Below, piece by piece: positions 30,566-51,286 of a stretch of 64,000 nt of DNA. The stretch comes from a phage. The stretch is from NCBI GenBank assembly GCA_025832235.1, contig GCA_025832235.1_3649.1. The stretch is one strand, 5' to 3'. The translations under genes were made by a program, and so were the position numbers. Positions within the stretch are counted from its first letter, which is position 1. Each line of letters starts with the position of its first letter. Under the pieces are notes generated by a model. It was not told where the DNA came from and did not search any database. It saw nothing but the letters and a program-made list of their open reading frames with translations.

Positions 30566-30969
30566 TGATCAGTCTCCTTCTTGTTAAGTCTGAATACTGC
30601 AATAATAGCATTCCCAAGGTGCAGTGTCAAGTCATTTCCAAGATACCACAGCATTCCACGGTCATCTTTGATGAAAGGGTAGCAATTTGGTGCCTTCTCT
30701 TTAATGAAAGGGTGACAATCTGGTGCTTTCCAGACATTGTACACTTTCCCAACCTGAAAGAAATCAGGCCCTGTTGGGATTTTAGTGCCTGGCCACACTT
30801 GAGATACCTGAACACACTCCACCTGCATAATAACAGGGATAGTCATGGATGTAAATGTTTTTGTTGGTTCTACTACCATAAAAGTCTCCTCTTTGCTCAA
30901 CAACACTTCCATGTGTTGATAGTTTACATTAGTGACAATCACCCCAGTTACGACCACACAAGTATTCAC
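30562..30969 (-). CDS. hypothetical protein
   Basis: ORF track (GTG start overlapping end of polymerase exon 2); true start uncertain. Confidence 0.45.
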   Translation of the reverse strand: MNTCVVVTGVIVTNVNYQHMEVLLSKEETFMVVEPTKTFTSMTIPVIMQVECVQVSQVWPGTKIPTGPDFFQVGKVYNVWKAPDCHPFIKEKAPNCYPFIKDDRGMLWYLGNDLTLHLGNAIIAVFRLNKKETDQ

Positions 30970-31282
30970 CTGTGATCTGGAACGGGACTCCCATCATTTT
31001 AGAAGCTTGCCAGAAGCAATGCACCACCATTTCACCCACAGGGCTCCAGATAAGTTCAAGCTTTCCGTCATCGTTCAGGATAGGATCGTACACCGTGTTT
31101 CCGTCTCTGTCAACCACTTCGTTTCCGTTTTCATCCTTGCGTGCCTTTTTGTACTTATGACCGTCGAACACATGAAGTTTGGCTTCCTGCTCTGCCTTAA
31201 ATGCTTCCAGTTCTTCAATTGTGTCGAAGGTGTACACAGTCTTATACTTCGGTGTGTCAGGCACTTGAAGTTGGTACTCATC
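30929..31282 (-). CDS. DNA polymerase (family A, T7 gene 5-like), exon 2 (C-terminal, begins with the DE of motif C)
   Basis: Translation DEYQLQV...GEYLCGRNWGDCH; C-terminus parallels T7 DNA polymerase ...TEGKMGPNWAICH; no SD or start codon of its own. Confidence 0.7.
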   Translation of the reverse strand, partial: DEYQLQVPDTPKYKTVYTFDTIEELEAFKAEQEAKLHVFDGHKYKKARKDENGNEVVDRDGNTVYDPILNDDGKLELIWSPVGEMVVHCFWQASKMMGVPFQITGEYLCGRNWGDCH

Positions 31283-31558
31283 CAATAGTTCAGGTAGGTC
31301 GTTAAGCTACCCCGCACCATTACGTGCATAGCCATACGTTTTCACGTAGGATCGGACCATCTCATATTCCTATGATAAGCAACCACAGGAATCCTCCCAT
31401 TTCGACCGCACTTGCTGGTCTACTTCCTTTCGGAATGGCCTCTGAGCGTTCGCTCTTTTGAGCGCTTCGTTGCGGATTACCTTGCCATAAGGTTTAGGCT
31501 TCCCGCAGTTAAAGAGGTTATTCGACATAGATTACTCTATGAAGCCACAATGTTATTT
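31283..31558 (-). mobile_element. group I intron (276 nt, ORF-less) in the DNA polymerase gene
   Basis: Splits H|DE of motif C; 5' exon ends in U, intron ends in G; IGS GUGG pairs with exon CCAU; P-like AACUGCGGGAAG (31499-31510), Q-like AAUCCGCA (31471-31478), R-like GCUCAGAGGCCA (31436-31447), S-like GAGAUGGUCC in canonical order; stops in all frames. Confidence 0.7.
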
Positions 31559-34500
31559 ATGGTAATAAATAATACGACGAACACCTTCATCGTACCACCC
31601 ACGCTTCACCATCTGGCGGTGCATGAGTATTCCAACTAAGTCACACAGCGATGCACCACCATTTTGTTGGTATGCATTAAGTAAAGAGTGTTTAGATCTG
31701 GTCCAGATAGCATGACCATCAAAAGAGTAGATAAACTTCTTACCCGTTGCTTCCCAGAATTTCTCCAGATCTTCTTTACGCCCCTTAAGACCAGGGTTGG
31801 CATCCCAGAGTGCATCGATTACCCTTTGTCCCAACTCTGGAGAGATGTCCAGCATATCTGCAACTTTATCTTTTTGTGCCCCATACATAACCCCATACGT
31901 GATAGGTTTACCGTCGTTACGGGAAATCTCCTTGCCTGCTACAGAAGAGTAAGCTTTGGCGTTATTACAGTTACCGCACACTGCCACTTTACCATTCCTT
32001 CTCACAATGATTGCTCCAGAAGGGACGGTAACGCAATAAACCAAAGAACCGCTCACCTCGACAGACTCTTTAGATAGTGTCAGCAACCCTGCTCTCTGTT
32101 TGCTACCAATTGTGATTCTGTGCTGCACGGCACGACCTTTTTTGTGAATCGCCACCGTATTATTCCGTAAACCACACTGAGTAGCCAGCGCAGACACCAC
32201 CTCTACAGATTTCTTCCTGCACTCGGCCTGGGAGTAGTAAGCAACCTTTCCACCTTCGGAAGATACCCACCCGTCCCAGTTAGATAAAGAAGCTATAAAC
32301 AGGTTTTTAGATTCTTTATCAAGGTTCATCAGGTTATAGGTGAAATCCTTATTGTTGTCCAAAAACTCAAATACCCAGGACGGAACGTGGAATTGGAACC
32401 TTCTCGCCAGTAAGCCTCCTTTTGTGGTTTTCCCGCTCTGCTCTACATAACTAAGGCTTAGAGCAGAAAAAGTATCTAAAAGCGTTGCAACTTTTCTTCC
32501 CTTTCCGACCTGAATCCTGCACACGATGCTGCCGTCCTTATTTGTATGCAAGTGCCCATCATCGTGAATAGCAATAAGCAAATTAACCTGGGCAGGAGAT
32601 AAGGTTGTATTCCCATAAAACTCTGCCGCATGGATAAACCTTCTTCCTGAATTAGACCCTTTACCTGCTTTCAGGTCTTTTGCCAAATCTTCAAACAATT
32701 TATTGCTTCTGTGATCCACAGTCAGCATCCTGTGTTGATCTGTAACCATAAAATCCACACTACTGTTGTGGAAATGATACATATCCCCACAATAACTACG
32801 CTTAACGTAATTTAATGGAGTAACAAGGTTCATTGACGAGGTGTTGTGATCGTACTGGAACACTTGTGTTCCCGGATCAAGATCTTCAAACCTCACCCAC
32901 CCTTTCTCCGTGAGAATTTGTGTATCTCCTGAATAACAGTGTGCATCGCCGTTACTTACAACATCGTAATACAGGCCGTTGTCGAACTCAAAGGCACCCC
33001 AAGCCCCGATAAGCTGCTCTAAGTTGGACCCGTCAATACCGATCTCAAAGTATCCTGGAGGAACACCCCACAGACTACGCATCTCTTTACCCATAACCAC
33101 TTTAGGAGATGGTTTAGGCATGTTTGCACAAATACTGTGTTTCTGTCGGGAAGTGTTTGTTAATCCAGAACTTTTAGCAGGAAGCTTATGGTCAATCTTC
33201 AAACGTGGGTGATTAAGAAGACCAGTATCAACCTTATCCTCCTTGATTGGATCAAGGACCGATCTGCGGTTTCGCAATGATAACCACAAGACGATATCTT
33301 TAGCCATCTCTCCGTTCAATTTTTCAAGATTCGGGCATAGGTGTCCAAACGTATCTTTCAGTTGCGGAGAAGTAATAAGTGCCCTAGCTTTTCTACGTAT
33401 TTTCCCGAATACTTCCTTTTTAATCCTTTCGGAGTTAGGAAAGCTTCTGAACTTGTGCACGGTTGTCTGGAACTTAGCATCAGTTTTGTTCCAGAAGTTG
33501 ATAATTAGGTCACAATACTCTGACTCTAAAAGCTCGTCCATATATGCATACACTCGTGCATCAACATCTGCATCAGGTAGAGCTTTCTTCTTGCTGTCTT
33601 TAGTTACATCCTTAGTTCTCCACATTGTCGGAAGCCAACCAGCACTGATCAGGTATCGCTTAATATCGTCCTGATTGCTGATTTTCATAGGTATCTTGCA
33701 GTCAGGCATTCGCTTCTGCTGTAGATCACTTATTGCCTGATCCATTAGCTCTTTAGGTAAAGGTTGTGGTGTGGAGGTGCCCTTGATATAGCCCCTCAAG
33801 AAATCCGCCATCTTATCAGGGTCTTTACAGCCCATCTCTTCACACCATTTTATCCCCATCTTACTGACATCTCCTGTGGAGGTAAATGCTCGCTTAGGAG
33901 GAGCTTTGAATTCTAAAGCACTCATGTCCACAGGGTAGCCAAGCTTGTCTTTTAACCATTTCCAACCATTATTGGAGATTGTCCCATCCTGGTTAAACGG
34001 CTTTTCAGGGAACTTAGGCCGCTGAGACATTGATAACTCTTTTAAAGGAAGTTGTGGTTCAACACGATCAGCGATCTCTTTCATCCACGCATCGCAGCGG
34101 TCACGTAAAGCAATAGCCCCATCTATGTCGAAATACACACCCTGTCGAGCCTGCAGCTCCATCAGGAAATGTTGCAGCATGCCTCGGCGTAATGCATTCT
34201 TCCAGGTAATCTTCTTGAATCCTTTAGGCTTCTCTTTGGCAGGGTCATACATAAAGTTCTGCATGTCAGATTTGCCGTAGAATACACCTTTTGATTCCGC
34301 TACCAACTCTTTCCAGAGCAACTCCTGGATGATAACGTCCTCGAACACACGATCCACATATTTCCACAGCGGAAGATCGCGCCAGTCATCAATTTGAACT
34401 TTCTGGTTACCAAGGGCGTAGCCCCATGCCATAAGGCCGTGAGGACCAACAGGTTGCATTTTCTTAGTAACCGGGTTGAATACAGCGTCCGGACAACCTT

Positions 34501-34951
34501 TTGGTAAAGGGCGATCAGGCCACAAGATTCGGCTCATAGCCAACGTATCAAACAGGTTAACCTGGTGGTCGTTGATAGTCCCCATGCATTTAGGATCACG
34601 GAACATATCAAAATGAATACCGGATAATCTTTCCATTAGCATAAAGTCATAACTGTAGCAGTTATGGCAGTTCAAAGCTGTTGGTGACCAGTCAGAATTG
34701 CCTGTAAGCCAACCTTCCAACTCCGAAAAATCTGCTATGCGAACTTCAAAATCTTTATAAAGAGTTTTCTTTGCCAGAATGAAGTTCTTAGCCTTTTCTA
34801 TATCCTCCTCGGAGTAGTGTGTGCGGTCATTTAGAGGAAGGAACAGCATAAAACGGTTCTTATTCAGCTCTTTAAACAGACCGCAGTGATAATAAAGATC
34901 TGGGTCTTCCAGCAAACCGGATGACTCAAAATCGAAAGACCACATACTCAT
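31559..34951 (-). CDS. DNA polymerase (family A, T7 gene 5-like), exon 1, containing an in-frame intein
   Basis: N-terminal 3'-5' exonuclease motifs (FDFESSG, CHNCYSYD, GPHGLMAWGYALG); motif A IDGSNLEQL; motif B KPITYGVMYGAQK; ends ...RRIIYYH where HDE is expected. Confidence 0.85.
31970..32938 (-). mobile_element. intein (323 aa) with LAGLIDADG-type homing endonuclease domain
   Basis: Block A CYSGDTQILTEKGW, block B LTVDHR, LAGLIDADG-like LLIAIHDDGH and FIASLSNWDGW, C-terminal VYCVTV...VAVCGN followed by +1 Cys; flanking exteins NGDAH|CNNAKAY restore a T7-like NGDIHTKNQIA segment. Confidence 0.75.
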
Positions 34952-35009: not shown

Positions 35010-37088
35010 TTAAAAAGGCGTTTCATCATCCTCAAAACCAGGGACCGGGTCAGAGGATGGATCATCGTACTGGAGGTCTTCCTGCGTGTCAACAGGCTTA
35101 ACAGTAGGAGTTACAACCTTATCAGCCACAACCTTGCCCATAGGTGTTTCTACAACTGCATGCTCCTGATCCTCAAACATAGCCTGAGGTCTCCAAACAA
35201 CCTCCCCACCTTCTCCGTCTGTAAACATTTGCATTTCTTTGTCCCAGTACCAATTACTGGCATCATGGAACTTACCTGTATGCGGATCCATAACTAAAGT
35301 GTCAGCAATACCTAAAGTTTTTGCTGGACGGTTTTTAAGACCTACCAGACGGACACGTCCACGAGAACGATCCACCATTTCTTCAGCCTCGACACCTATG
35401 ACTACCCAACTCAACTGTTCAAGCCCAGCCGATCCTCGCAAATTCTCTTTTCGCACAGGATACCAGAAAGGTAACGGGTTACCATCCTTGTCCTTAGGAG
35501 GCACAATCTCTGTACGTTTGAGGTGAGCGATCACCAAGATAAACACGTTAAACTGCTTACAAAACGCAGCCAGCTGAGTCATAGCCATGTCCAGTTCTTT
35601 TCGCTCATCCTTAACATTAAGCCCTGAAATTACCATGGACAGGTGATCCAGCACAATATAACGGCAATGGTACAGGCAAACCATTTGCTTAAGCTTGGTA
35701 ATCAACTCGTCCACCGGAATAGATCCGAAATGTTTGAACACTTTGATTTTTCCAGCTTTTGCCCATGATTGGTGAATCTCTGCGTGTTCTTGATCAGTTA
35801 AAAACTGGCTAGGATCTTCAACAAACTCTTTAACATCAAACCCTAACTGGTTTGCATACAAGGAGTTAATTGCTTCCTCTGGGTCCTCCTCAAGATGGAT
35901 CATACATAGACGATCATCCTCTTCATAGTCATCAGCCTTCGGGCATGTCGGGTCCATTAGGTATCTTGCAATACAATGTTCCAGTTTTTTAGCTACAGTT
36001 GTTTTACCGCCCCCTGATGGCCCTGTAAGCATTACGAGTGTCCCTTTGTGCAAGCCTTTTAGCATTTTTTGCAGTTTTGGGAACTCTGCGCTGATATCTA
36101 CCCCGTTGGAAGTCTTTTTCCGCAAAGACTCGATAGAGAAGTCTTCTAAATCCGACACAGCATCAGGCACATATTTAACAGGGTGCCGGAACATGTTGAC
36201 AATATCTTCCAGCTTTTTAGCCTTCAGCATGTCACGGATATCTTTTACCCCGTCAGGGTCATTTACTTCACCAGGGTATTCTACGTGGTAAACGTTATCA
36301 GCCATCAAAAATGCTGCGATATTGTGCGTGGCCTCAACACCTTTAATGACGTGTTTTTGCTTCTCTACCTCGTTAGCTGCATCGTTATCCATTGCCAGCA
36401 CAACTGTTCCATAGCTACGGATAAACTTCTCATTGTTTGCAAAAGTATCTACTGCGTTTGCACATCCACAGTTAATTCCAACAAAAGGCAGGCAGGGTTT
36501 TCCTGCCAGATCACCACCGTTGATAACTGCGTCGATCCCGTCCTGGACCTCTTTAGCCCACTGCTTCACCTTTGCCGGGGCTTTAGCGTTGGTGAGAATC
36601 CCTTTTACTTGTATCTGATATGCAGCCTGCCATGCTGCAATAACATCACCTTCCCCCTCACAAACGTTAATCTGCTTACGGTTGTTGGAAGATGCACACA
36701 GCTTTTGACCAAACATCTGGGAGTTGGCCTTTACGATGCCAACAACGGAGAAGTGGCCCCTTTGTTCTTTAGGAATAGTCCAGTCACGCTTTTTGAAACC
36801 GGACAGATTTCCGTAGCGGTCGTAATATGGGAAATATGTTGCAGTGACTGTCACACCGTCTTCTTGTGACAATGCTGATCGCACACCAAAATATTGTGCA
36901 GCCATCAGACCGATATTTTGTTGTGGGACAGGGACAATTTTAGTATTTTCTAAAACAGTCTCTACAGTTTCAACTTCTTTTTCATCACGATAGTCTCGTT
37001 TCACACTTCCCCCACTTTTATACTTAGTTGCTTTCGGGTTTGGCTCACCGAAACGGTTGTATGCAGATGCCATAAATTTACTTCCCAT
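35010..37088 (-). CDS. primase-helicase (toprim domain + DnaB-like helicase; T7 gp4-like)
   Basis: Toprim motifs CEGEGD and LAMDNDAANE; Walker A LTGPSGGGKTT; Walker B IVLDHL; AHLKR; acidic C-terminal tail ...FEDDETPF. Confidence 0.8.
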   Translation of the reverse strand: MGSKFMASAYNRFGEPNPKATKYKSGGSVKRDYRDEKEVETVETVLENTKIVPVPQQNIGLMAAQYFGVRSALSQEDGVTVTATYFPYYDRYGNLSGFKKRDWTIPKEQRGHFSVVGIVKANSQMFGQKLCASSNNRKQINVCEGEGDVIAAWQAAYQIQVKGILTNAKAPAKVKQWAKEVQDGIDAVINGGDLAGKPCLPFVGINCGCANAVDTFANNEKFIRSYGTVVLAMDNDAANEVEKQKHVIKGVEATHNIAAFLMADNVYHVEYPGEVNDPDGVKDIRDMLKAKKLEDIVNMFRHPVKYVPDAVSDLEDFSIESLRKKTSNGVDISAEFPKLQKMLKGLHKGTLVMLTGPSGGGKTTVAKKLEHCIARYLMDPTCPKADDYEEDDRLCMIHLEEDPEEAINSLYANQLGFDVKEFVEDPSQFLTDQEHAEIHQSWAKAGKIKVFKHFGSIPVDELITKLKQMVCLYHCRYIVLDHLSMVISGLNVKDERKELDMAMTQLAAFCKQFNVFILVIAHLKRTEIVPPKDKDGNPLPFWYPVRKENLRGSAGLEQLSWVVIGVEAEEMVDRSRGRVRLVGLKNRPAKTLGIADTLVMDPHTGKFHDASNWYWDKEMQMFTDGEGGEVVWRPQAMFEDQEHAVVETPMGKVVADKVVTPTVKPVDTQEDLQYDDPSSDPVPGFEDDETPF

Positions 37089-39146: not shown

Positions 39147-39488
39147 CTACTCAAGGTCTTCAGAGTCAAGCTCAAAAAGAATCAAACTGTGCATACCTGC
39201 AGAGAGATCAACACACCCTGCAACAATAAGGGTCTGATAGTAAGGTTCAGTACCCTCGATGTCTTCGTTAAAATCCACAACAAGGTAGTCACCTTTGTTA
39301 AAGGTGTATTTGTCCGATGTAAATGCAAAACCTGCCCAGTCCCCTACTGCAGGATCTTTATCAGTCACCTTTGTTAGCAGTAGATCTTTTTCACGAGATC
39401 TTTTAGTAAAATCGTGAATCACAACATCCTTCTCTTCAGGAGTTGGATTTCCACACACGTAGTTAACTATATTTCTCCACAAACTCAT
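39147..39488 (-). CDS. hypothetical protein
   Basis: ORF track. Confidence 0.55.
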   Translation of the reverse strand: MSLWRNIVNYVCGNPTPEEKDVVIHDFTKRSREKDLLLTKVTDKDPAVGDWAGFAFTSDKYTFNKGDYLVVDFNEDIEGTEPYYQTLIVAGCVDLSAGMHSLILFELDSEDLE

Positions 39489-40855
39489 ACGTCCCCCTCT
39501 TCGGCTCTGGTTTCAAAATCTTTCCTGACAATTTTGTCTAAGTCAGGGAATGTTGTATTGTAAAACTCTACGACTCGCGGGTCAACAATAATGTCAACTT
39601 CTCTTAGTGGACGCAACAAGTTTATTCCTTGTATCGTCTTAACTCTACTCAAAGCGACATACGTCATCCCAGGAGAGAAAGCTCCGTTCTTTCCAAGGTC
39701 CAGGTTGTAACAATCTAGCGTAAGTCCTTGACTTTTATGAGATGTTACGGCGTACCCAGATTTCAGAGGGAGTTGCTTGTATGATCCAATCACTACCCTC
39801 TCTATAAACTTCTCCATCTTCCTTTCTGCAATGTTGTATCTTTGAGATGGCTTATACTCGTTATTCTCCCACAACCTTTGTTCTATGTCAACCTGTGTTC
39901 CATCTTCAAGCTCCACCACCACCGCCTTGTTCTTAAATTTAACAATTGTGGCACGTGTTCCGTTAACATAATAAGGTACTTTGTGCGTCGGGTCAACATC
40001 GTTGGCGGTTATCATAACTTTCATGCCAATTTTCAACTTCATCTCCTGCTCAACTGGCAAGGTGGAGGGAAACTTACCCTTCATTTCACCAGTGTATACC
40101 TTCTCTGGGGCGTTGATGGCATCATAGAACCTTCTGTTCACTTCCTCTGCTTGTTTGTTGGTGGCGCAAATTGTGAGAGCGTCTGTTGGTACACCTCCTT
40201 TGTAACAGCGAGCATTAAGTTCTGCTACAACCTCTTTTATACGACGACCCTCACGAACACAGTTGAGCATTGTAGCAAATCGAATAGACTCCTGTCGGAA
40301 CTGATCTATTAGGGCTATGTTGTGGAGGTCAAGCTCTTTCCAAGATTCGGTATAGCAACACAAGTCCGTATGGTAGAAATTGAAGTAGGCTTCCTTCTCC
40401 ATAGAAGAGACAACAGGAGGTGCCTGGTAAAAATCGCCAAACAATATGACCTGTATGCCTCCGAAAGGTTTGTCATTTTTTCGAAGGAAGCGGAGTTTCC
40501 TATCCATCTCTATAAACTTATCAGCACGGATCATAGAGATTTCATCGATAATTAGGATGGTAAATGCCTTGCTCTTCAAAGGCTTTGCTGTTTTTGCCCT
40601 TATTGCGGTCCAGTCTGACTCCATGCTCACACCTGCTGCAAGATCGAAGGTTCGGTGTGCTGTTGCTCCATTAACGTTTAAAGCGGCTACCCCTGTCGGG
40701 GCAACCGTTATGCAAGAGTCTCCATACATTGACTGGATCATGTTGATGAGGTACGTCTTCCCACAACCTGCGGGTCCTGAAACGAAGACATTCTCACCGC
40801 TCATGATTGCAACGAGGGCAGCATCTGTGCCTACATCATACTGCCCTTTTTCCAT
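39485..40855 (-). CDS. dda: SF1B DNA helicase (Dda/RecD/Pif1-like)
   Basis: Walker A GPAGCGKTY; Walker B ILIIDEISMI; AVTSHKSQGLTLD; YVALSRV. Confidence 0.8.
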   Translation of the reverse strand: MEKGQYDVGTDAALVAIMSGENVFVSGPAGCGKTYLINMIQSMYGDSCITVAPTGVAALNVNGATAHRTFDLAAGVSMESDWTAIRAKTAKPLKSKAFTILIIDEISMIRADKFIEMDRKLRFLRKNDKPFGGIQVILFGDFYQAPPVVSSMEKEAYFNFYHTDLCCYTESWKELDLHNIALIDQFRQESIRFATMLNCVREGRRIKEVVAELNARCYKGGVPTDALTICATNKQAEEVNRRFYDAINAPEKVYTGEMKGKFPSTLPVEQEMKLKIGMKVMITANDVDPTHKVPYYVNGTRATIVKFKNKAVVVELEDGTQVDIEQRLWENNEYKPSQRYNIAERKMEKFIERVVIGSYKQLPLKSGYAVTSHKSQGLTLDCYNLDLGKNGAFSPGMTYVALSRVKTIQGINLLRPLREVDIIVDPRVVEFYNTTFPDLDKIVRKDFETRAEEGDV

Positions 40856-42060
40856 TACGCCTCCTCGTAAAGAATGTCGATAGTGTTACCATCACGGTCA
40901 ACCACGTATTCAATCGGATCGCCATCTTTGCGTGATTCCGGTGCTGCTACGATTTCGTAGCGGCATGCACGGCACTTAGCACTGTTGTGTTGGTATGGCA
41001 CACTAACCACATCCGCAGGGTCAACCATAACCATCATTACGGTGCCATAGCCCGCTGCATACTCTTTGCTGGCGCAGTGCAGGCCATAAGAACACGCAGC
41101 TTCCGGATCATCTTCTACAAAGTTACGAGGCATGGATACAAAAGCACCCTGGTATTGTGGAACTTTACCGCTGTGCCAATCCACCCACTTGCTTCCGTTA
41201 AACTGAACCCCCTTATAGCAAATGATTCGACCATCTTCTGCAACCTGGATGTCATTAGCCTGCATGAAATCGTAGAGCATGTTCACAGATTTTGCAGACG
41301 GGTTGCGTAGCAGACGGACAAGGAATTTAACATATCGGTCGTCCAGTGTTCCATCTATATAATCTTCCTCAATTTTCTTTGCAATGGTAGATTGCATCTC
41401 TACACCGTAGTAATAGAGCTTACCATCTTTCATAATCAGGTTGTCTGCAAGTGTAGTGAACTCATTCTTGCGTTCCAACCAGACAAGGATTTCACCAATT
41501 GCCTCGTCATATTCCTGAACAGAGATATGGTCGAAGACTTTCTGGTAAACTTCCTCACTTTCGCTGCGGCGAATTTCAAAAATGCCTTCGTTGCAGGTGA
41601 TCTGGAGGAGTTCCCCACAAATAACCACCAAAGGCTCGATGTTTCGAGTCTGTTGCTGAGACACACTGCTCACCACCTCCAGCACCGGATCTTTGACTTC
41701 TACTAAAGGTTCTTCTGACTTGATTGCCACCCCAGTGAACCCCACACCGTGAACAACACACAGTGGGTATACCACGCCCCAACGTTTAACGGAACCTTCG
41801 CCTAAATCTAAGATCATAGCGTACTTACCGTTATCTTCCAGACCGTATCGAAATAAACGGGCCTCTTCGCGGGTTTCAAAATCCTCACGGGTGTAGCAGA
41901 CGCTGTCACGGTCAGGATTGAACAACTCTGGGGCACCAACTGCCAGTGTCCAGGTTGTGTCGCCTTTCTCAATGGCACATGTGAAACCCTTCTTCTCAAG
42001 TTCTGCACGGCGGTCTCGTGCTTCTTTACGGGTTTTGAAATGTTCGTAGATGAAAATCAT
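40855..42060 (-). CDS. rIIB: rIIB-like protein
   Basis: Immediately downstream of rIIA-like gene (T4 order); SAKSVNMLYDFMQANDIQVAEDG and MPRNFVEDDPEAACSYGLHCASKEY...VDPADVVSVP...NSAKCRACRYEIV parallel T4 rIIB as recalled from memory. Confidence 0.6.
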   Translation of the reverse strand: MIFIYEHFKTRKEARDRRAELEKKGFTCAIEKGDTTWTLAVGAPELFNPDRDSVCYTREDFETREEARLFRYGLEDNGKYAMILDLGEGSVKRWGVVYPLCVVHGVGFTGVAIKSEEPLVEVKDPVLEVVSSVSQQQTRNIEPLVVICGELLQITCNEGIFEIRRSESEEVYQKVFDHISVQEYDEAIGEILVWLERKNEFTTLADNLIMKDGKLYYYGVEMQSTIAKKIEEDYIDGTLDDRYVKFLVRLLRNPSAKSVNMLYDFMQANDIQVAEDGRIICYKGVQFNGSKWVDWHSGKVPQYQGAFVSMPRNFVEDDPEAACSYGLHCASKEYAAGYGTVMMVMVDPADVVSVPYQHNSAKCRACRYEIVAAPESRKDGDPIEYVVDRDGNTIDILYEEA

Positions 42061-42070
42061 CTTGGTCTCC

Positions 42071-44053
42071 TTATTTGATGTTATTCTTTGTATCGATCAG
42101 CTCACGGTATTCAATCATAGCAGGGGTGTCCCAATATTTCAAGCCCACATGCTTCAAAAGTGGATATTTCTTTTCCAATCTTGCAATATAGGCCTTCCCG
42201 CACTTAACCCGGTTGGTGATTAAGATTTTGGCACGATGATTTAGCTCACTGTGCTTCCACGCGGTGTTACCTTCCCACTTGTGGAAATGTGGCCGATAAT
42301 TTCCAAAATCCTGCATGGGGATAATTTTCCCTAATTGTCTATACAAGCTGTCATATGAAGTTTCATTTGCTGCGCGAGTCAGTAAGAATTTCCAAGCATC
42401 CTCTTTCAACAAATGTTCCACATTCTTCTCTGTAACATACTGGCAATCAGGATCAGTCCAAAGCAGACGAGATTCTGATACCAAGTACAGATCTTCACCT
42501 TCAGGAATCTGGAGTGCAGCACGCACACGGTCATAATTTTGCTGGTAGATGTTACTCAGCTGTCCCAGCCAACAACTTCCACGTTGGATATCACCCTCAT
42601 AAGGAATGCAGTGCTTAATCTTCTTGAACTCTGCCTTAGTAATACGTTCACGACGGAAGTAACCATCCTTCTCAAGCTTTTTAACCCAATAACCTGGCTC
42701 GTAATGAGTTTTTGTTTCACCTTTCTTCGCAGGTCGGCGAGGGAGCTCTGATAACAATTTGACAGTATCTGCAAAGAACGGATGGTGTGCCGCCTCTTTA
42801 AACTCTTTCACCAGATCCGTGTTCCGGCAATAGAAAACGTTGCGTCCGGTGATTTCGCTTAAGTAGTTACACTTATTTCGGTTATATTTGCCGTCTCCGT
42901 CGTTAAATACAAGGTATACACCTCGTAAGAACTCCGACTTTCCGTAACAAGCGTAACCTATGCGGCCTTTATTTAAGCCGCCAGCGAAGATCTCACAGTC
43001 CCCCAAATTTCCTAGGCCTGTCTCTTCCCATCGTTCCCACATAAAATTCTTACCGAAGATGTGCCCGAACACTCCACTGTTCTTCATCATCTCGCGTGCT
43101 TCTGAGGATGTTTTTGCTGTCTCCAATTCCGCAACAACTTCTGCCCCACGTAAACGGATACCCTCTTTGACAAAAGCCTCCAGGCGATCCTGGAATCCAC
43201 CGTCGTCATGGCCCTCTATGGTCCATTCGCGCCCAGGGTTAATATTGCAATCCCCAATAGGAATCTCTACACAGATTGCAGGGTAGTCTGTCAATGTTTC
43301 CAGGAATTTAGATCGGTAAGGTTGGTGACCCATTACCACGCGACTCTCGTCAGAGCTGGTATAACCTTTCAGGATAGTCATTTTCCAACCATCTTTCTCG
43401 TAGCGATACTGAGCCTCAACCTTGTCACCTTCCAGCATCTTACTGGTCATAGGGTCGGTAACGGTAAACGGAAACTTTGCATAGCGTAGGCATGACGCAA
43501 TAGCAGTGCGATATTTCAGAACATGCTCTTTCTTAACATGGAACTGAACTTTTACCCCGTTGTGCTCTTCAGTCTTCCGCTCGCGGATCTTGGTAACGTT
43601 TGGGATACCCTGATCCAAGAACAATAGATATGTGCTTTCAACACCGTTGTGCACACTAATCACATCGAAAGTGTCCACCATGCTGAACGGGGCCTTTGAA
43701 CCTACACCTTTATTACCTACCAGAGCGTTGCTGTTGCGCTTGGTTGACTCCCCGAGGTTCATGAAAGTGTTGCGGACCATCTCTTCTGACATACCCAATC
43801 CAACGTCCTGCACAAAGAAGTATGGTTCAAGGTCTGTAGGAGAGTGAATGATGATCGGTACATCACCCCGTCCAGACTCAACATGGGAGTCCACAGCATT
43901 GAAGATTGGTTCACGGCAGCTTGCCAGCACCTTATCTTCGTAAATCCCTTTAATGATTAGCCCAAAAGTCTCTTTGTTCAGAGAAATTGAGCCCCTGGTG
44001 ACCTCCATATTTCCGGTCAGCACTGCTTTAGTTTCATTACTGTTTACAATCAT
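42071..44053 (-). CDS. rIIA: rIIA-like protein (N-terminal GHKL/HATPase domain)
   Basis: Bergerat-fold motifs: N-box IFNAVDS, G1 VQDVGLGMS, G2 VGNKGVGSKAPFS; 660 aa; upstream of rIIB-like gene. Confidence 0.7.
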   Translation of the reverse strand: MIVNSNETKAVLTGNMEVTRGSISLNKETFGLIIKGIYEDKVLASCREPIFNAVDSHVESGRGDVPIIIHSPTDLEPYFFVQDVGLGMSEEMVRNTFMNLGESTKRNSNALVGNKGVGSKAPFSMVDTFDVISVHNGVESTYLLFLDQGIPNVTKIRERKTEEHNGVKVQFHVKKEHVLKYRTAIASCLRYAKFPFTVTDPMTSKMLEGDKVEAQYRYEKDGWKMTILKGYTSSDESRVVMGHQPYRSKFLETLTDYPAICVEIPIGDCNINPGREWTIEGHDDGGFQDRLEAFVKEGIRLRGAEVVAELETAKTSSEAREMMKNSGVFGHIFGKNFMWERWEETGLGNLGDCEIFAGGLNKGRIGYACYGKSEFLRGVYLVFNDGDGKYNRNKCNYLSEITGRNVFYCRNTDLVKEFKEAAHHPFFADTVKLLSELPRRPAKKGETKTHYEPGYWVKKLEKDGYFRRERITKAEFKKIKHCIPYEGDIQRGSCWLGQLSNIYQQNYDRVRAALQIPEGEDLYLVSESRLLWTDPDCQYVTEKNVEHLLKEDAWKFLLTRAANETSYDSLYRQLGKIIPMQDFGNYRPHFHKWEGNTAWKHSELNHRAKILITNRVKCGKAYIARLEKKYPLLKHVGLKYWDTPAMIEYRELIDTKNNIK

Positions 44054-44550
44054 TTATTGCGCTCCTTGTAGTAGATATGGCTCCCGAATTGAGCTGTCCT
44101 CTGCATCTTTTTTGCCCATTTCGGTCGTACTTTGGTTGTATGGTAGTGTGTTGCTCCACCTGTTATGTCCATAGCCATGTATGCAACATGGTTGTTATTA
44201 TAGACCTTTAGAAGCATCTTTGCAAGACTTTTAGCGTGATCCCATGAATCTTTTTCTGTCACCTTAAAAGTTTTGCCGTGGTTTGTCCACGAAAACTGGT
44301 TAGGTTGGTAGACAATCTTTCTTATAGTGTCTGGGTATTTGGGGTGAGATTTCCTGTTTAGTGTGGCAAACCCTGATGCCAGCATACCCATCGTGCCATC
44401 CCCTCTAGCCTCCCTGTAGATATTGCATGCCAGAATGTTTTCCTTAGTATCTGAGGGCTTGCAAGTATGATATACTTTTTGTTTTGGTGCTGCAACAACA
44501 GGCAGCGATAAAAATGCGCTCAAAATAATAGCAAAGATCTTAATTTTCAC
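44050..44550 (-). CDS. secreted cell-wall hydrolase (SleB/Hydrolase_2-like); candidate endolysin
   Basis: N-terminal signal peptide MKIKIFAIILSAFLSLPVVAAP; motifs NIYREARGDG and YQPNQFSW; start overlaps rIIA stop. Confidence 0.6.
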   Translation of the reverse strand: MKIKIFAIILSAFLSLPVVAAPKQKVYHTCKPSDTKENILACNIYREARGDGTMGMLASGFATLNRKSHPKYPDTIRKIVYQPNQFSWTNHGKTFKVTEKDSWDHAKSLAKMLLKVYNNNHVAYMAMDITGGATHYHTTKVRPKWAKKMQRTAQFGSHIYYKERNK

Positions 44551-44599
44551 AATAACTCCAAATAGAAAATCCCCGCCGAAGCGGGGGAGGTCTTAGAAA

Positions 44600-44980
44600 T
44601 TAATCGTAGTGTGCCAAAATCTCTCCATCGTTGCAAGTTCCCTCTACAAAGTTATGAAGATTCATGCACTCATCTTGATAGAAGAATTTACCGCTTTTCA
44701 GCCGTAAGCCAAACAACTCCGCATCTCCACGATGGCAAGCCTCTACAAGTTCATAGATTTCATACGGCAACTCTCCGTCGTCATGGAAGAACCCAGCCTT
44801 ATCGTTGACATAGATGAAGAAATAATCACTGCTATCGCAAGCGTCCAATATTTTAAACCAGATTTCATCTACATCTTTTTCTCGGATATCAATCACGCAA
44901 GTGGAGCTGCATTCGTACTCCTTCTCCGGCTCCTCGGTCAATACCACCCGGTAATTTCCCCGCTTACCTACTTTAGCCAT
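44600..44980 (-). CDS. hypothetical protein
   Basis: ORF track. Confidence 0.55.
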   Translation of the reverse strand: MAKVGKRGNYRVVLTEEPEKEYECSSTCVIDIREKDVDEIWFKILDACDSSDYFFIYVNDKAGFFHDDGELPYEIYELVEACHRGDAELFGLRLKSGKFFYQDECMNLHNFVEGTCNDGEILAHYD

Positions 44981-44989
44981 ACAACCCCC

Positions 44990-46174
44990 TTAAGCTTTAG
45001 CTAAAATGGCGCTAAACTCTTCACCAAACTCTTTTACAATCTTCATCAGGTTTGGGTACGCTTTGATCAGTTGAGCAACGATCTTGTCACGCCCTTTACC
45101 GATAAGCAAGGCATTTCCTAAGGCGTTAGGTTTCATCATCGCCATAAAGACTGAGAATACAAAATCTCGGTTCTCGTCCTTGAAATTTTCCCAAAGGAAA
45201 TCGAGGAAGTTTGCCACACAGCTAACAAGATCTTCGTCAGAGATACTTGCATTTTCCATCATATTACGAATAGCGATACAACCTTCAGATCCAAGAATCC
45301 ACAAGATGTCTGGCTGCTTAGGCCCTACGTATTCTTTGCAACCCCCTGCCATAATCCGACCGATTTCCGGTAAATTGCGTTTCTTGGTGTGGTAGGTCCA
45401 GATCTCTACCGCTGCAGTGTGACCAATAGCACCTTGCAGAAGAACACGGGCCATAGCGTCAGAAATAATACCGCTGTCAAAATCGTGCAGGATATCAGAT
45501 GCAGCAACCCAAGATCGCGGTGTGGCAAAAGATGGGCAATTAATTTCAGCCATAGCCTCATAATTATCAATAGCTGATGGAACTCTTTTCAGATACCCAA
45601 TTACAGAGGAGTGAACCCCGTTGAGGAATGCGTAGTCCTCAATAAACACCTCTGCATTGCTTGTAACCTCTACAATGATAAAACGGTTAGCCAGAGGGGC
45701 TTCGAGCGCCGAAAGAACCGCACCATCTGTAGAACGGTTACCCGCAGCCACAAAAACAGAACCCTTAGGGAATGCATAGGTGCCGCACTTGTGGTCAAGC
45801 ATAATTTGCATTGCAACCTTTTGCAGGTAGTTATCTGCATGAGTGAGCTCATCCAGAAAGATAATTCCGCTCCAGTCAGGATCCGCAGGCCAAAATTCTG
45901 GAATTGCAAACACTGTACGTGTAGTTCCATCCGCTTCTACAGGGATAGGTAGCCCAGATAAGTCGGCAGGATCTTTATCTGACAGTCGCACGTCAACAAG
46001 GTTGTCATCTCGCTCACCGAACATATTATCAGCGATCTGCTTCATCACCTGGCTTTTACCCACACCCATTGGTCCCAAAATTAGGACAGATCGGCTATGA
46101 CGTTGGGCAAACTGAATAATAGCTGGCAACTCACGGACAGTGATTTGACCACTTTCGAATACGTTTCTTGACAT
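44990..46174 (-). CDS. AAA+ ATPase (MoxR/AAA_5-like)
   Basis: Walker A LILGPMGVGKSQ; Walker B IIFLDELTHA; 394 aa. Confidence 0.6.
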   Translation of the reverse strand: MSRNVFESGQITVRELPAIIQFAQRHSRSVLILGPMGVGKSQVMKQIADNMFGERDDNLVDVRLSDKDPADLSGLPIPVEADGTTRTVFAIPEFWPADPDWSGIIFLDELTHADNYLQKVAMQIMLDHKCGTYAFPKGSVFVAAGNRSTDGAVLSALEAPLANRFIIVEVTSNAEVFIEDYAFLNGVHSSVIGYLKRVPSAIDNYEAMAEINCPSFATPRSWVAASDILHDFDSGIISDAMARVLLQGAIGHTAAVEIWTYHTKKRNLPEIGRIMAGGCKEYVGPKQPDILWILGSEGCIAIRNMMENASISDEDLVSCVANFLDFLWENFKDENRDFVFSVFMAMMKPNALGNALLIGKGRDKIVAQLIKAYPNLMKIVKEFGEEFSAILAKA

Positions 46175-48712: not shown

Positions 48713-48741
48713 ACTATATCGTAGATTTATAGTAAAGTCAA
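48713..48741 (-). promoter_or_regulatory. leftward sigma70-like promoter (TTGACT-N17-TATAGT)
   Basis: Plus-strand AGTCAA 48736-48741 and ACTATA 48713-48718; -35 lies in one arm of palindrome GTCAAC-N11-GTTGAC. Confidence 0.5.
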
Positions 48742-48754
48742 CACGTTTTTGAGG

Positions 48755-48783
48755 TTGACATCTGTCGAGGCACTTGATAAGAT
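48755..48783 (+). promoter_or_regulatory. rightward sigma70-like promoter (TTGACA-N17-TAAGAT)
   Basis: TTGACA 48755-48760 in the other palindrome arm; TAAGAT 48778-48783. Confidence 0.5.
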
Positions 48784-49804: not shown

Positions 49805-51286
49805 ATGGCCCCTTCTGGAGTTTTAATGGATAGCAGAAGTTCAGAAATCATTACCGCACAAAAAGATGATGCCTTGCGAATGCTGCAGGCCGCTCGCATG
49901 TACCTTCTTGAAAAGCTGCCGTTTTATGGCACACTGTTGTCAGGGTTGCAGTTCGTAGAAAACCACACATGGTGCTCCACCATGGCAACAGACCATAAAC
50001 GCATCTACTACAGCCCTGAGTTCATTATGGGGTTGGCAGATGAGCGTAAAACCATTCTTAAAGCATCTCTGACTGACAAGCAGTTTGAGATGGCTGAGGT
50101 TTTCTATTCCCCAAAATCTGTGAAAGAGGTGGCCTTTCTTCTGTCACATGAGGTGGGGCATATTATCTGTGATCATCTGGTCCGTGGTAAAAGCTTTGAG
50201 CCGGAACTGTTCAATATTGCTTGTGATCACGTTATCAACACAGGTCTTGTGGTTGACTTTAGCAAGCCTCCTTGTGTTTTCTTCCCGAAGGGGAAAAGCA
50301 CTGAGTTCGTAAAAGGTAAGCCTTTTGGCTTCTTAGCTAATTGCTACTGCGACATGAGGTTTCATGGATGGATTGCTGAGAACGTCTATGCAGTTCTTGA
50401 TAAACAAAGAGATCAGAATGGCGGTAAAAGTAAGAACGGTAAAGGTGAGAACTCCCAAGGAGATAAACGACAAACCGATGATCACATGAGCGGGAACGGT
50501 GGCACTAGTGATGATCTTGGAAAGGCTATGGGGTATGATCAGCCGCAACCAGTAATCAGTCAATCTGACAAAGATCAGGCCATGCAGGACTCTGGTGACA
50601 TGTTGGAAGCAGCAATGCAAGCTTCAGGAGGTCGTTGCCCCGAGGCGGTGCGCGAGTTTGTCAAAAACAGAGGCAAGCCTGTAATCAATTATATAGATAT
50701 TATTAAGCAACGTATGTTATCTAAAAGAAAGGCTGAGTTAACCTACAGAAAACCTGGTCGCCGATCTGGGTCTTTGACCACCACAATGCGAAAAGTTGGA
50801 GCTATAAACAAGAATCAACACGTTATTGTTCCTGGTCGTAATCCGGAAAACACTATAGATATTGTAGTGGCTTTAGACGTTTCTGGGTCGATCTCACAAA
50901 GAACTTTAAAGAAAATGTTCAATGAGATCACCGGGTTGTGCAATTTGTATAAAGAGTTTAAGGTTACTATGTTCTGTTGGTCAACGGAGGTTGGAGAGGT
51001 TAAAGTATACACTCGCGGTAACATCGATGAGATGATTAACTATGAGGTCCACTCAACATGGGGCACAACAGCCGCCTGCGTGTTCGAGTATCTGGATGCT
51101 AACATACCGAATGCAAAAGATGTCATCGTCCTTACCGACCTCTACTTTGAGCATAACTTTGAACAAAAGGCTGTTGACAACAAGTGGAAAAAGTACGATA
51201 CTTTATGGGTTCTCACCGAAGGGTATAATAAAAATTATATCCCGAGCTTTGGGAAAACTGTGGAATTAATCGAGTACGCTAAGTAA
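49805..51286 (+). CDS. VWA-domain protein with N-terminal zinc-metallopeptidase-like HExxH motif
   Basis: SHEVGHIICDH (HExxH); VWA MIDAS-like IVVALDVSGSIS; 493 aa. Confidence 0.6.
   Translation: MAPSGVLMDSRSSEIITAQKDDALRMLQAARMYLLEKLPFYGTLLSGLQFVENHTWCSTMATDHKRIYYSPEFIMGLADERKTILKASLTDKQFEMAEVFYSPKSVKEVAFLLSHEVGHIICDHLVRGKSFEPELFNIACDHVINTGLVVDFSKPPCVFFPKGKSTEFVKGKPFGFLANCYCDMRFHGWIAENVYAVLDKQRDQNGGKSKNGKGENSQGDKRQTDDHMSGNGGTSDDLGKAMGYDQPQPVISQSDKDQAMQDSGDMLEAAMQASGGRCPEAVREFVKNRGKPVINYIDIIKQRMLSKRKAELTYRKPGRRSGSLTTTMRKVGAINKNQHVIVPGRNPENTIDIVVALDVSGSISQRTLKKMFNEITGLCNLYKEFKVTMFCWSTEVGEVKVYTRGNIDEMINYEVHSTWGTTAACVFEYLDANIPNAKDVIVLTDLYFEHNFEQKAVDNKWKKYDTLWVLTEGYNKNYIPSFGKTVELIEYAK

Follow-up and report, generated by a model that had tools for sequence, protein, structure and literature searches.

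This study concerns a compact group of genes on the minus strand of a 64,000-nucleotide (nt) stretch of phage DNA (NCBI GenBank assembly GCA_025832235.1, contig GCA_025832235.1_3649.1; hereafter the window), in which a gene for a SleB/CwlJ-family cell wall hydrolase is followed by homologs of the T4 genes rIIA and rIIB and by a helicase gene. A preliminary description, made from the sequence alone, had flagged positions 40855-44550 as an rIIA-rIIB pair coupled to a signal-peptide hydrolase and lying next to T7-like replication genes. Open reading frame (ORF) calls and direct reading of the sequence reveal four tightly packed minus-strand ORFs in the order hydrolase, rIIA, rIIB and helicase (Table 1), and the flagged coordinates delimit the first three of them exactly.

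Neighboring genes in this group touch or nearly touch each other. At the hydrolase/rIIA junction, which reads ...AAGGAGCGCAATAAATGATTG..., the TGA stop codon of the hydrolase gene shares the tetranucleotide ATGA with the ATG start codon of rIIA. An overlap between these two genes had been noted earlier and is real, but its polarity was reversed: the hydrolase gene lies upstream, and it is the hydrolase stop that overlaps the rIIA start. A gap of 10 nt separates the rIIA stop from the rIIB start, with the AAGGAG of rIIB overlapping the rIIA stop codon, and the TAA of rIIB overlaps the ATG of the helicase gene (TAATG). Directly upstream of a co-oriented rIIB, rIIA stands where a member of the rIIA family is expected, and the order of the two genes is that of T4, as had been proposed.

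The profile hidden Markov model searches that had been suggested as a check were run, and all three proteins match: rIIA to phrog_612, rIIB to phrog_609 and the hydrolase to PF07486. The helicase is recognized both by PF05970 (E=1.1e-32) and by phrog_325, 'Dda-like helicase' (E=6.4e-112). The gene identifications of the block are thus beyond chance.

Table 1. Positions of the genes, protein regions and expression signals discussed in the text (window coordinates unless a sister-genus locus is named).
Feature	Position	Strand	Description
DNA polymerase	31553..34951	-	T7 gp5 is the best PDB match, E=7e-9
Primase/helicase	35010..37088	-	T7 gp4 is the best PDB match, E=4e-16
Dda/PIF1-like SF1 helicase	39485..40855	-	456 amino acids (aa); directly downstream of rIIB
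rIIB	40855..42060	-	401 aa
Conserved rIIB C-terminal region	40936..41547	-	aa 172-375; common to T4 rIIB
Lineage-specific rIIB N-terminal region	41755..42060	-	aa 1-102; two beta-alpha-beta-beta repeats
rIIA	42071..44053	-	660 aa; AAGGAG 8 nt upstream of ATG
GHKL (Bergerat-fold) ATPase-like N-domain of rIIA	43484..43978	-	about aa 26-190; HATPase_c_3
SleB/CwlJ-family hydrolase	44050..44550	-	166 aa; GTG start; GGAG 7 nt upstream
Candidate sigma-70-like promoter	44197..44225	-	TTGCAA-17-TATAAT, 10/12 matches; in hydrolase gene, about 145 nt upstream of rIIA start
Signal-peptide coding part	44491..44550	-	aa 1-20, MKIKIFAIILSAFLSLPVVA; predicted cut between VVA and AP
Intrinsic terminator	44571..44586	-	CCCCGC-TTCG-GCGGGG then ATTTTCTATTT; 6 G-C pairs; direct read and scan
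Small ORF with two transmembrane domains (holin-like), sister genera	L009 5536-5691; L011 5536-5709		51-57 aa; two hydrophobic segments

The block is conserved in Vequintavirus genomes

The window belongs to a Vequintavirus, an rV5-like virulent myovirus of Escherichia coli; genomes of these rV5-like myoviruses measure about 136 kb. The flagged 5-kb stretch is 96-98% identical at the DNA level to 121 phage records, nearly all of them Escherichia Vequintavirus, the best matches being pangalan and EdH4 (98.0% nucleotide identity over 5 kb). Protein identity to EdH4 amounts to 99.4% for the hydrolase, 98.8% for rIIA and 99.8% for both rIIB and the helicase. The relatives' records annotate a 'cell wall hydrolase (SleB/CwlJ)', an 'rIIA protector' or 'membrane integrity protector', and 'rIIB', and the 4-nt overlap of hydrolase and rIIA is found in each of MaxTheCat, pangalan and EdH4. 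With the exact block present in more than 100 Vequintavirus genomes, the flagged stretch is a conserved block of the genus, made up of a terminator, the SleB-like hydrolase, rIIA, rIIB and the Dda-like helicase, and it is already known from annotation, comparative genomics and, for the rII genes, experiment.

Among the database records, 16-24 labeled 'Campylobacter phage' (MG065635.1 and MG065659.1 among them; host C. jejuni) are 97-99% identical to the Vequintavirus sequence of the window, which suggests mislabeled hosts or contaminant phages in that submission.

The rIIA and rIIB proteins

The rIIA protein matches phrog_612 from end to end (residues 1-658 against profile positions 1-724 of 725, E=2.5e-124), and a Pfam search finds a HATPase_c_3 domain in its N-terminal part (34.9 bits, cut-off 25). 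Three GHKL boxes, at residues 47-57, 82-89 and 113-123, line up with the motifs of T4 rIIA: the N-box R47-EPIFNAVD-S56-H57, the G1 box D83-V-G-L-G87 and the G2 box G113-N-K-G-V-G118. With BLASTP, residues 1-198 are 28% identical to T4 rIIA (E=3e-21), and the C-terminal 460 residues give no alignment to that protein. Judged by sequence, rIIA consists of a GHKL-ATPase-like N-terminal domain and a variable C-terminal part.

The rIIB protein matches phrog_609 over residues 132-375 (E=2.2e-60) and is 36% identical to T4 rIIB over 204 residues (E=1e-37); its homologs carry the precomputed Pfam family PF26926. When 24 homologs are aligned, the invariant columns cluster in aa 172-375, and an AlphaFold model gives most of this region a predicted local distance difference test score (pLDDT) of 76-94. 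The preliminary description had called the two genes rIIA-like, for the GHKL motifs, and rIIB-like, and had named a lack of similarity to the rII proteins on proper alignment as what would overturn it; the direct alignments to T4, together with the profile matches and the three boxes, bear out both names.

The N-terminal region of rIIB differs from that of T4. An invariant pattern, F-x-[TS]-R-x-[ED]-A-R ... R-W-x-V, characterizes its two repeats and is kept in homologs down to 35% identity, and in the AlphaFold2 model (mean pLDDT 72.8) the repeats are followed by a disordered linker at aa 103-141. Residues 7-50 of T4 rIIB match the helix-turn-helix (HTH) families HTH_7, HTH_28 and Sigma70_r4, whereas no HTH profile matches the N-terminus of the window protein or of its homologs. 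An N-terminal HTH is thus a variable feature among rIIB proteins and does not define the family.

Placement of the rIIB N-terminus in the periplasm beside the hydrolase, through a SPOR domain and a transmembrane segment, was considered and rejected. The match of the whole protein to SPOR (PF05036) is below the cut-off (19.3 bits against 21, E=0.0015); the isolated N-terminus reaches 22.5 bits (E=1.4e-4) and covers half a SPOR domain, and a SPOR search of the homologs returned no match. In a Foldseek comparison, the SPOR domain of CwlC was hit at E=0.65, alongside generic de novo beta-alpha-beta-beta mini-proteins. The hydrophobic stretch at residues 95-113, a candidate transmembrane segment, is modeled as a beta strand and disordered linker (pLDDT 25-28), and neither a signal peptide nor a transmembrane helix was found in rIIB. 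Because the protein lacks an export signal and its similarity to SPOR is not significant, we do not propose that it binds peptidoglycan.

As phrog_609 matches both proteins, we also considered whether rIIA and rIIB are paralogs; direct BLASTP between them (E=1.1) detects no similarity, and phrog_609 probably contains fused or mixed members. In one database protein (P0005, 498 aa), whose gene lies on a metagenome contig of 3.3 kb, TPR repeats are fused to a C-terminal rIIB half sharing 95% identity with that of the window; it is probably an assembly chimera or a gene-call artifact.

A SleB-like hydrolase with a predicted Sec signal

The hydrolase matches nearly the full length of the Pfam family Hydrolase_2 (PF07486; 70.4 bits, cut-off 27, E=2.1e-19, profile positions 2-100 of 100) as well as phrog_938, 'endolysin' (E=1.7e-27). 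Among proteins of solved structure, it comes closest to Bacillus SleB, whose catalytic domain it matches in 4F55 and 4FET (E=2.5e-6). The putative catalytic residue Glu47 lies in the motif YREARGD and is invariant in eight phage homologs. Its counterpart in 4F55 and 4FET is the first Glu of GESRGE, which we take from the structural work on SleB to be the catalytic residue; the protein also has two cysteines, Cys30 and Cys42. A profile search finds no N-terminal peptidoglycan-binding domain. Going by these similarities, the protein is a member of the SleB/CwlJ family and not a SleB ortholog, in agreement with the earlier call of a SleB/Hydrolase_2-like enzyme with a signal sequence.

That call had left the signal as either cleavable or of the signal-anchor-release (SAR) type. 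A type I signal is defined by a positively charged n-region, an h-region of 12-17 residues and small residues at positions -3 and -1. The N-terminus of the hydrolase follows this layout, with MKIK as a positive n-region, IFAIILSAFLSLP as a hydrophobic h-region and VVA, followed by AP, supplying the small residues. The mean Kyte-Doolittle value over residues 3-21 is 2.29, no other segment of the protein is hydrophobic, and the h-region is free of glycine and dominated by I, L, F and V. SAR domains, in contrast, are weakly hydrophobic N-terminal transmembrane domains rich in Gly, Ala and Ser, with no cleavage site. Despite divergent N-termini, the n-h-c layout and A-x-A sites recur in six of eight aligned homologs, the six being from Seunavirus, a Klebsiella relative, phi92-like phages (two) and a T5-like phage; in the two most distant homologs, which belong to a Pseudomonas phage and an IMG/VR contig, the hydrophobic N-terminus is longer and different. 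Since the layout comes with an A-x-A site and is shared by homologs that have otherwise diverged, the evidence favors a cleavable Sec signal over a SAR anchor, so that of the two types the description had allowed, the cleavable one looks right and the SAR-like one does not. A signal peptide has likewise been described for the Certrevirus homolog CB7_83 (PMC7344957).

A proposed accessory exported wall enzyme

[quoted passage not shown] Homologs are found in 1,266 phage records, among them rV5-like, T5-like, phi92-like, Pseudomonas and Vibrio phages, and several of the phages with a homolog have another endolysin too. In MaxTheCat, too, an 'endolysin' distinct from the hydrolase is annotated (471 nt, 156 aa), together with a putative holin, baseplate lysozymes and, adjacent to the terminase, a pair of i- and o-spanins; all of these lie far from the hydrolase block. 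LysECP26, an rV5-like endolysin that has been purified, is a lysozyme-like protein, likewise of 156 aa (PMC9728275). The hydrolase is therefore probably not the main endolysin; with a lysozyme-type endolysin, a holin and spanins encoded elsewhere, the SleB-like enzyme is better viewed as an additional exported wall enzyme.

We propose that export brings the hydrolase to the periplasm, with cleavage after VVA, that it would cut the glycan strands of peptidoglycan by the lytic-transglycosylase chemistry of SleB, and that it may act as an accessory wall-degrading enzyme beside the cytoplasmic lysozyme-type endolysin, the holin and the spanins.

Alternatively, the enzyme may remodel the wall in the periplasm early or midway in infection and take no part in lysis; it might free wall fragments, loosen peptidoglycan locally or change the envelope in a way that counters superinfecting phages. 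Its gene sits in the replication and host-takeover block, away from the structural, spanin and endolysin genes, a Sec signal makes a holin unnecessary, and signal-peptide homologs are found widely among large virulent phages, alongside another endolysin that these already possess. On the other hand, several records carry the annotation 'endolysin', the lysis role attributed to CR3_087 points the other way (PMC7344957), no phenotype is known, and a literature search on transcript timing in rV5-like phages found nothing usable. We regard such a role as rather unlikely.

rIIA and rIIB as a counter-defense module

The rII genes of a phage nearly identical to that of the window have been studied by experiment. 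EdH4 was one of five phages in a CRISPRi-ART study in which rIIA and rIIB were knocked down; the knock-downs had no effect on Rex-free E. coli and lowered plating on hosts carrying lambda RexAB (PMC11879866). T4 rII shows the same conditional essentiality by HIDEN-SEQ, and RexAB is known to act by membrane depolarization. Furthermore, rIIB has been identified as the trigger of a bacterial gasdermin system (PMC10312443), and within the subfamily rIIA and rIIB are found in both rV5 and PVP-SE1 and are missing from Certreviruses (PMC7344957). Based on homology and on the EdH4 experiment, the rII pair of the window is best described as a counter-defense module against Rex-type abortive infection: rIIA and rIIB together would be dispensable on ordinary hosts and would enable growth on hosts equipped with such a system.

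The preliminary description had instead treated rIIA and rIIB as lysis-inhibition genes. On that view, the timing of lysis would be set by a cassette of the T4 lysis-inhibition type, to which an endolysin with a SAR or signal-peptide N-terminus is coupled. The PHROG database names both rII families 'lysis inhibitor', the hydrolase is translationally coupled to rIIA, and rII mutants were historically isolated by their rapid-lysis plaques. Lysis inhibition proper, in T4, depends on rI, rIII and the holin; no antiholin gene of the rI or rIII type is annotated in MaxTheCat, and the small ORFs of the window were not scanned for such genes. The knock-downs in EdH4 are silent without Rex and impair plating with RexAB (PMC11879866), and HIDEN-SEQ extends this behavior to T4 itself. 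Moreover, the glycine-free, strongly hydrophobic N-terminus of the hydrolase with its A-x-A site is unlike the Gly/Ala-rich SAR domains, and endolysin, holin and spanins are encoded elsewhere in the genome. A lysis-inhibition cassette is consequently most improbable, and the label 'lysis inhibition' is outdated for the rII genes.

The adjacency of hydrolase and rII genes

Within the subfamily Vequintavirinae, the order of the block extends beyond the genus. Seunavirus 4MG has the hydrolase first, then an ORF of 57 aa, rIIA, rIIB and the helicase, the ends of its record falling where the small ORF gives way to rIIA. A Klebsiella relative shows this arrangement too, its small ORF measuring 51 aa; in addition, an HNH endonuclease gene separates rIIB from the helicase there. 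The small sister-genus proteins resemble the holin-like CB7_82, described beside the Certrevirus hydrolase (PMC7344957). A tblastn search with both proteins found no counterpart in the window (best E=0.038, at an unrelated site), and the idea of a holin-like ORF hidden between or inside the hydrolase and rIIA genes was dropped, as nothing significant turned up. Since the small ORF is absent from the window, direct ATGA coupling appears to be a compaction specific to Vequintavirus, and the overlap may have arisen from an older order of hydrolase, small two-transmembrane-domain protein, rIIA and rIIB.

Outside the subfamily the two components are found apart. In T5-like, phi92-like and Pseudomonas phages, no rII genes adjoin the hydrolase. 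A scan of IMG/VR with the hydrolase returned three loci only, one of them a distant relative with 38% identity, in which two small ORFs and then, about 0.5 kb downstream of the hydrolase, a DNA ligase gene follow, with rII genes lacking nearby. Conversely, of 50,697 phage records, 2,643 contain an rIIA homolog, T4-like, Felix O1-like, N4-like and Streptomyces phages among them. Because hydrolase and rII genes are unlinked outside the subfamily, we read their adjacency as inherited gene order and not as proof of a shared pathway.

A functional link can nevertheless be imagined. The exported hydrolase could be a secretory endolysin restrained by the energized membrane, like Lys44 of fOg44; by blocking the depolarization triggered by abortive-infection systems, the rII proteins would then prevent its premature activation, and the genes would form a single cassette for membrane integrity and lysis timing. 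Such a cassette would explain the conserved order and the ATGA coupling, and would provide a physiological read-out for the biochemical action of rII. It is in line with the order hydrolase, (two-transmembrane-domain protein), rIIA and rIIB kept in three Vequintavirinae genera, with the coupling itself, with the depolarization caused by RexAB, and with the toxicity of the Certrevirus homolog and the holin-like gene beside it (PMC7344957). However, hydrolase and rII genes part company in the T5-like, phi92-like and Pseudomonas phages, Certreviruses have the hydrolase and no rII (PMC7344957), and most rIIA-bearing records come from groups (T4-like, Felix O1-like, N4-like) that are absent among the hydrolase matches listed, adjacency not having been checked across them. 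We regard the proposal as very unlikely.

Expression signals

The preliminary description had placed these genes in one leftward operon. A strong intrinsic terminator lies directly upstream of the hydrolase gene, between it and an upstream hypothetical gene whose stop is at 44600, and leaves no room for a promoter after it. The co-oriented gene block extends over about 36 kb, starting near 48.7 kb and ending near 10 kb. One operon is therefore unsupported.

The 61-nt region of terminator and start codon (44545-44605) folds at -17.5 kcal/mol (z=-2.2), and in the minimum-free-energy fold the sequence around the stop codon of the upstream gene forms pairs with the GGAG of the hydrolase, which flanks the terminator hairpin. 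This modeled pairing may, as a weak lead, dampen translation of the hydrolase. Given its GTG start, the strong terminator just upstream and a ribosome-binding site that is possibly sequestered, hydrolase expression is probably kept low, as would suit a toxic periplasmic enzyme. A sigma-70-like match within the hydrolase gene could give rIIA transcripts of its own; this is likewise a weak lead, as promoter-like matches in the region are no more frequent than in shuffled sequence (19 versus 17.4). A window-wide Rfam scan detected no RNA element in the flagged region.

At the upstream end of the leftward block, the strand-switch region 48713-48783 holds back-to-back sigma-70-like matches, TTGACT-17-TATAGT on the minus strand and TTGACA-17-TAAGAT on the plus strand. 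It separates the block from a rightward gene that is annotated as anti-sigma factor in MaxTheCat and has PHROG matches to HNH endonuclease and Srd anti-sigma factor.

Overall interpretation

Taken together, these results are probably explained by a conserved Vequintavirus block in which the rII pair serves counter-defense, the hydrolase is an accessory exported wall enzyme, and the adjacency of the two is incidental. The preliminary description is partly supported: its gene calls are correct apart from the reversed overlap, and its interpretation is partly right.

Several observations weigh against this explanation. The anti-Rex result was obtained with EdH4, a phage other than that of the window. 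No experiment on this hydrolase in any Vequintavirus, nor a functional test of its phage homologs, was found in the literature. Against the SleB equivalog TIGR02869 the enzyme scores 48.3 bits, far from the cut-off of 236.5, and the catalytic part alone is matched. SleB is specific for the muramic-delta-lactam of the spore cortex, which E. coli lacks, so that the bond cut by the window enzyme is not given by SleB. Sequence searches for relatives of solved structure gave sub-threshold matches only, to the GHKL domains of TRAP1/HSP90 for rIIA (E about 0.1) and to influenza M1 for rIIB (E=0.11), and the rIIB model has no match in the PDB at E<=0.001 by Foldseek. Finally, ATGA coupling and synteny over three genera could mean a functional link between hydrolase and rII.

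Replication genes and other neighbors

T7-type replication genes follow on the same strand at a distance of 4-9 kb downstream. Their T7-like character, reported earlier, is confirmed by structure-database searches, in which the primase/helicase matches T7 gp4 and the polymerase T7 gp5 (Table 1). The helicase adjoining rIIB is Dda-like and hence of a T4-type family. With a T7-like primase and polymerase and a Dda-like helicase, the replication set is itself mixed, as is usual for large phages. The combination of rII with T7-like replication genes had been pointed out; considering the 2,643 records with rIIA homologs and the more than 100 Vequintavirus genomes with the block, it is unremarkable.

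Two selfish insertions sit in the gene for the T7-like family A DNA polymerase (31333-34951, minus strand). The first, intein-like and about 330 aa long, lies at about aa 672-994 (...GDAH/CYSGDTQIL...VAVCGN/CNN..., slashes marking its ends), in place of which MaxTheCat has 27 nt. The second, a group I intron (Rfam RF00028, 31568..31333, 64.7 bits, E=4e-14), breaks the frame after ...IIYYH, with K and a stop codon following, where motif C is expected from the alignment to T7 polymerase. The second exon (DEYQLQV...) is found in the ORF 31285..30929, and MaxTheCat annotates the coding sequence as a two-piece join.

On the other side of the block, a MoxR-like AAA+ ATPase is encoded at 44990-46174 on the minus strand (phrog_1297; annotated as MoxR in relatives). 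A few kilobases away, on the plus strand (49805-51286), lies a gene for a protein with a DUF2201_N metallopeptidase domain and a VWA-like domain. The two could be a MoxR-VWA partner pair split over the strand switch.

Significance

The flagged stretch carries little weight as a discovery: more than 100 genomes already have its three genes annotated, the hydrolase with its signal peptide has been discussed in print, and rII has been tested in a near-identical phage. The rV5-like EdH4, for which CRISPRi-ART tools exist, does offer a tractable setting for questions on the role of the hydrolase and the mechanism of rII.

Comparison with known systems

The closest known systems are the other Vequintavirus phages. 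EdH4, pangalan, Murica, rV5 and MaxTheCat are identical to the window in gene order, gene lengths and the 4-nt overlap; EdH4 differs by one substitution in the hydrolase, eight in rIIA and one in rIIB, and its record annotates the same terminator upstream of the hydrolase gene.

With T4 rII, the window shares the GHKL-like N-domain of rIIA, the C-terminal domain of rIIB and, through the EdH4 orthologs, the anti-Rex function. The two differ at the N-terminus of rIIB, an HTH in T4 and two beta-alpha-beta-beta repeats here, and in their neighbors, rIIA.1 and gene 60 lying upstream in T4 and the hydrolase in the window.

Bacillus SleB/CwlJ (4F55, 4FET) has in common with the window enzyme the catalytic family and the Glu of Y-G-E-S-R-G-E that aligns with E47. 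The window enzyme differs in lacking a peptidoglycan-binding domain, in the Gram-negative phage context and in its predicted Sec signal, and its substrate cannot be the muramic-delta-lactam of the spore cortex.

Secretory endolysins, such as Lys44 of fOg44, and SAR endolysins, such as P1 Lyz and phage 21 R, are muralytic enzymes that reach the periplasm via Sec without a holin, as is proposed for the window enzyme. They belong to other catalytic families than the window enzyme, whose phage, moreover, also has a conventional endolysin.

Finally, the hydrolases of other Vequintavirinae, CB7_83 (Certrevirus), CR3_087 and Seunavirus 4MG gp079, resemble that of the window in family, size, signal peptide and position upstream of the helicase region. 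Those genera differ in the 51-65-aa ORF with two transmembrane domains that follows the hydrolase gene, whereas in the window the hydrolase gene overlaps rIIA directly; Certreviruses differ further in that, although the hydrolase is present, rII is lacking altogether (PMC7344957).

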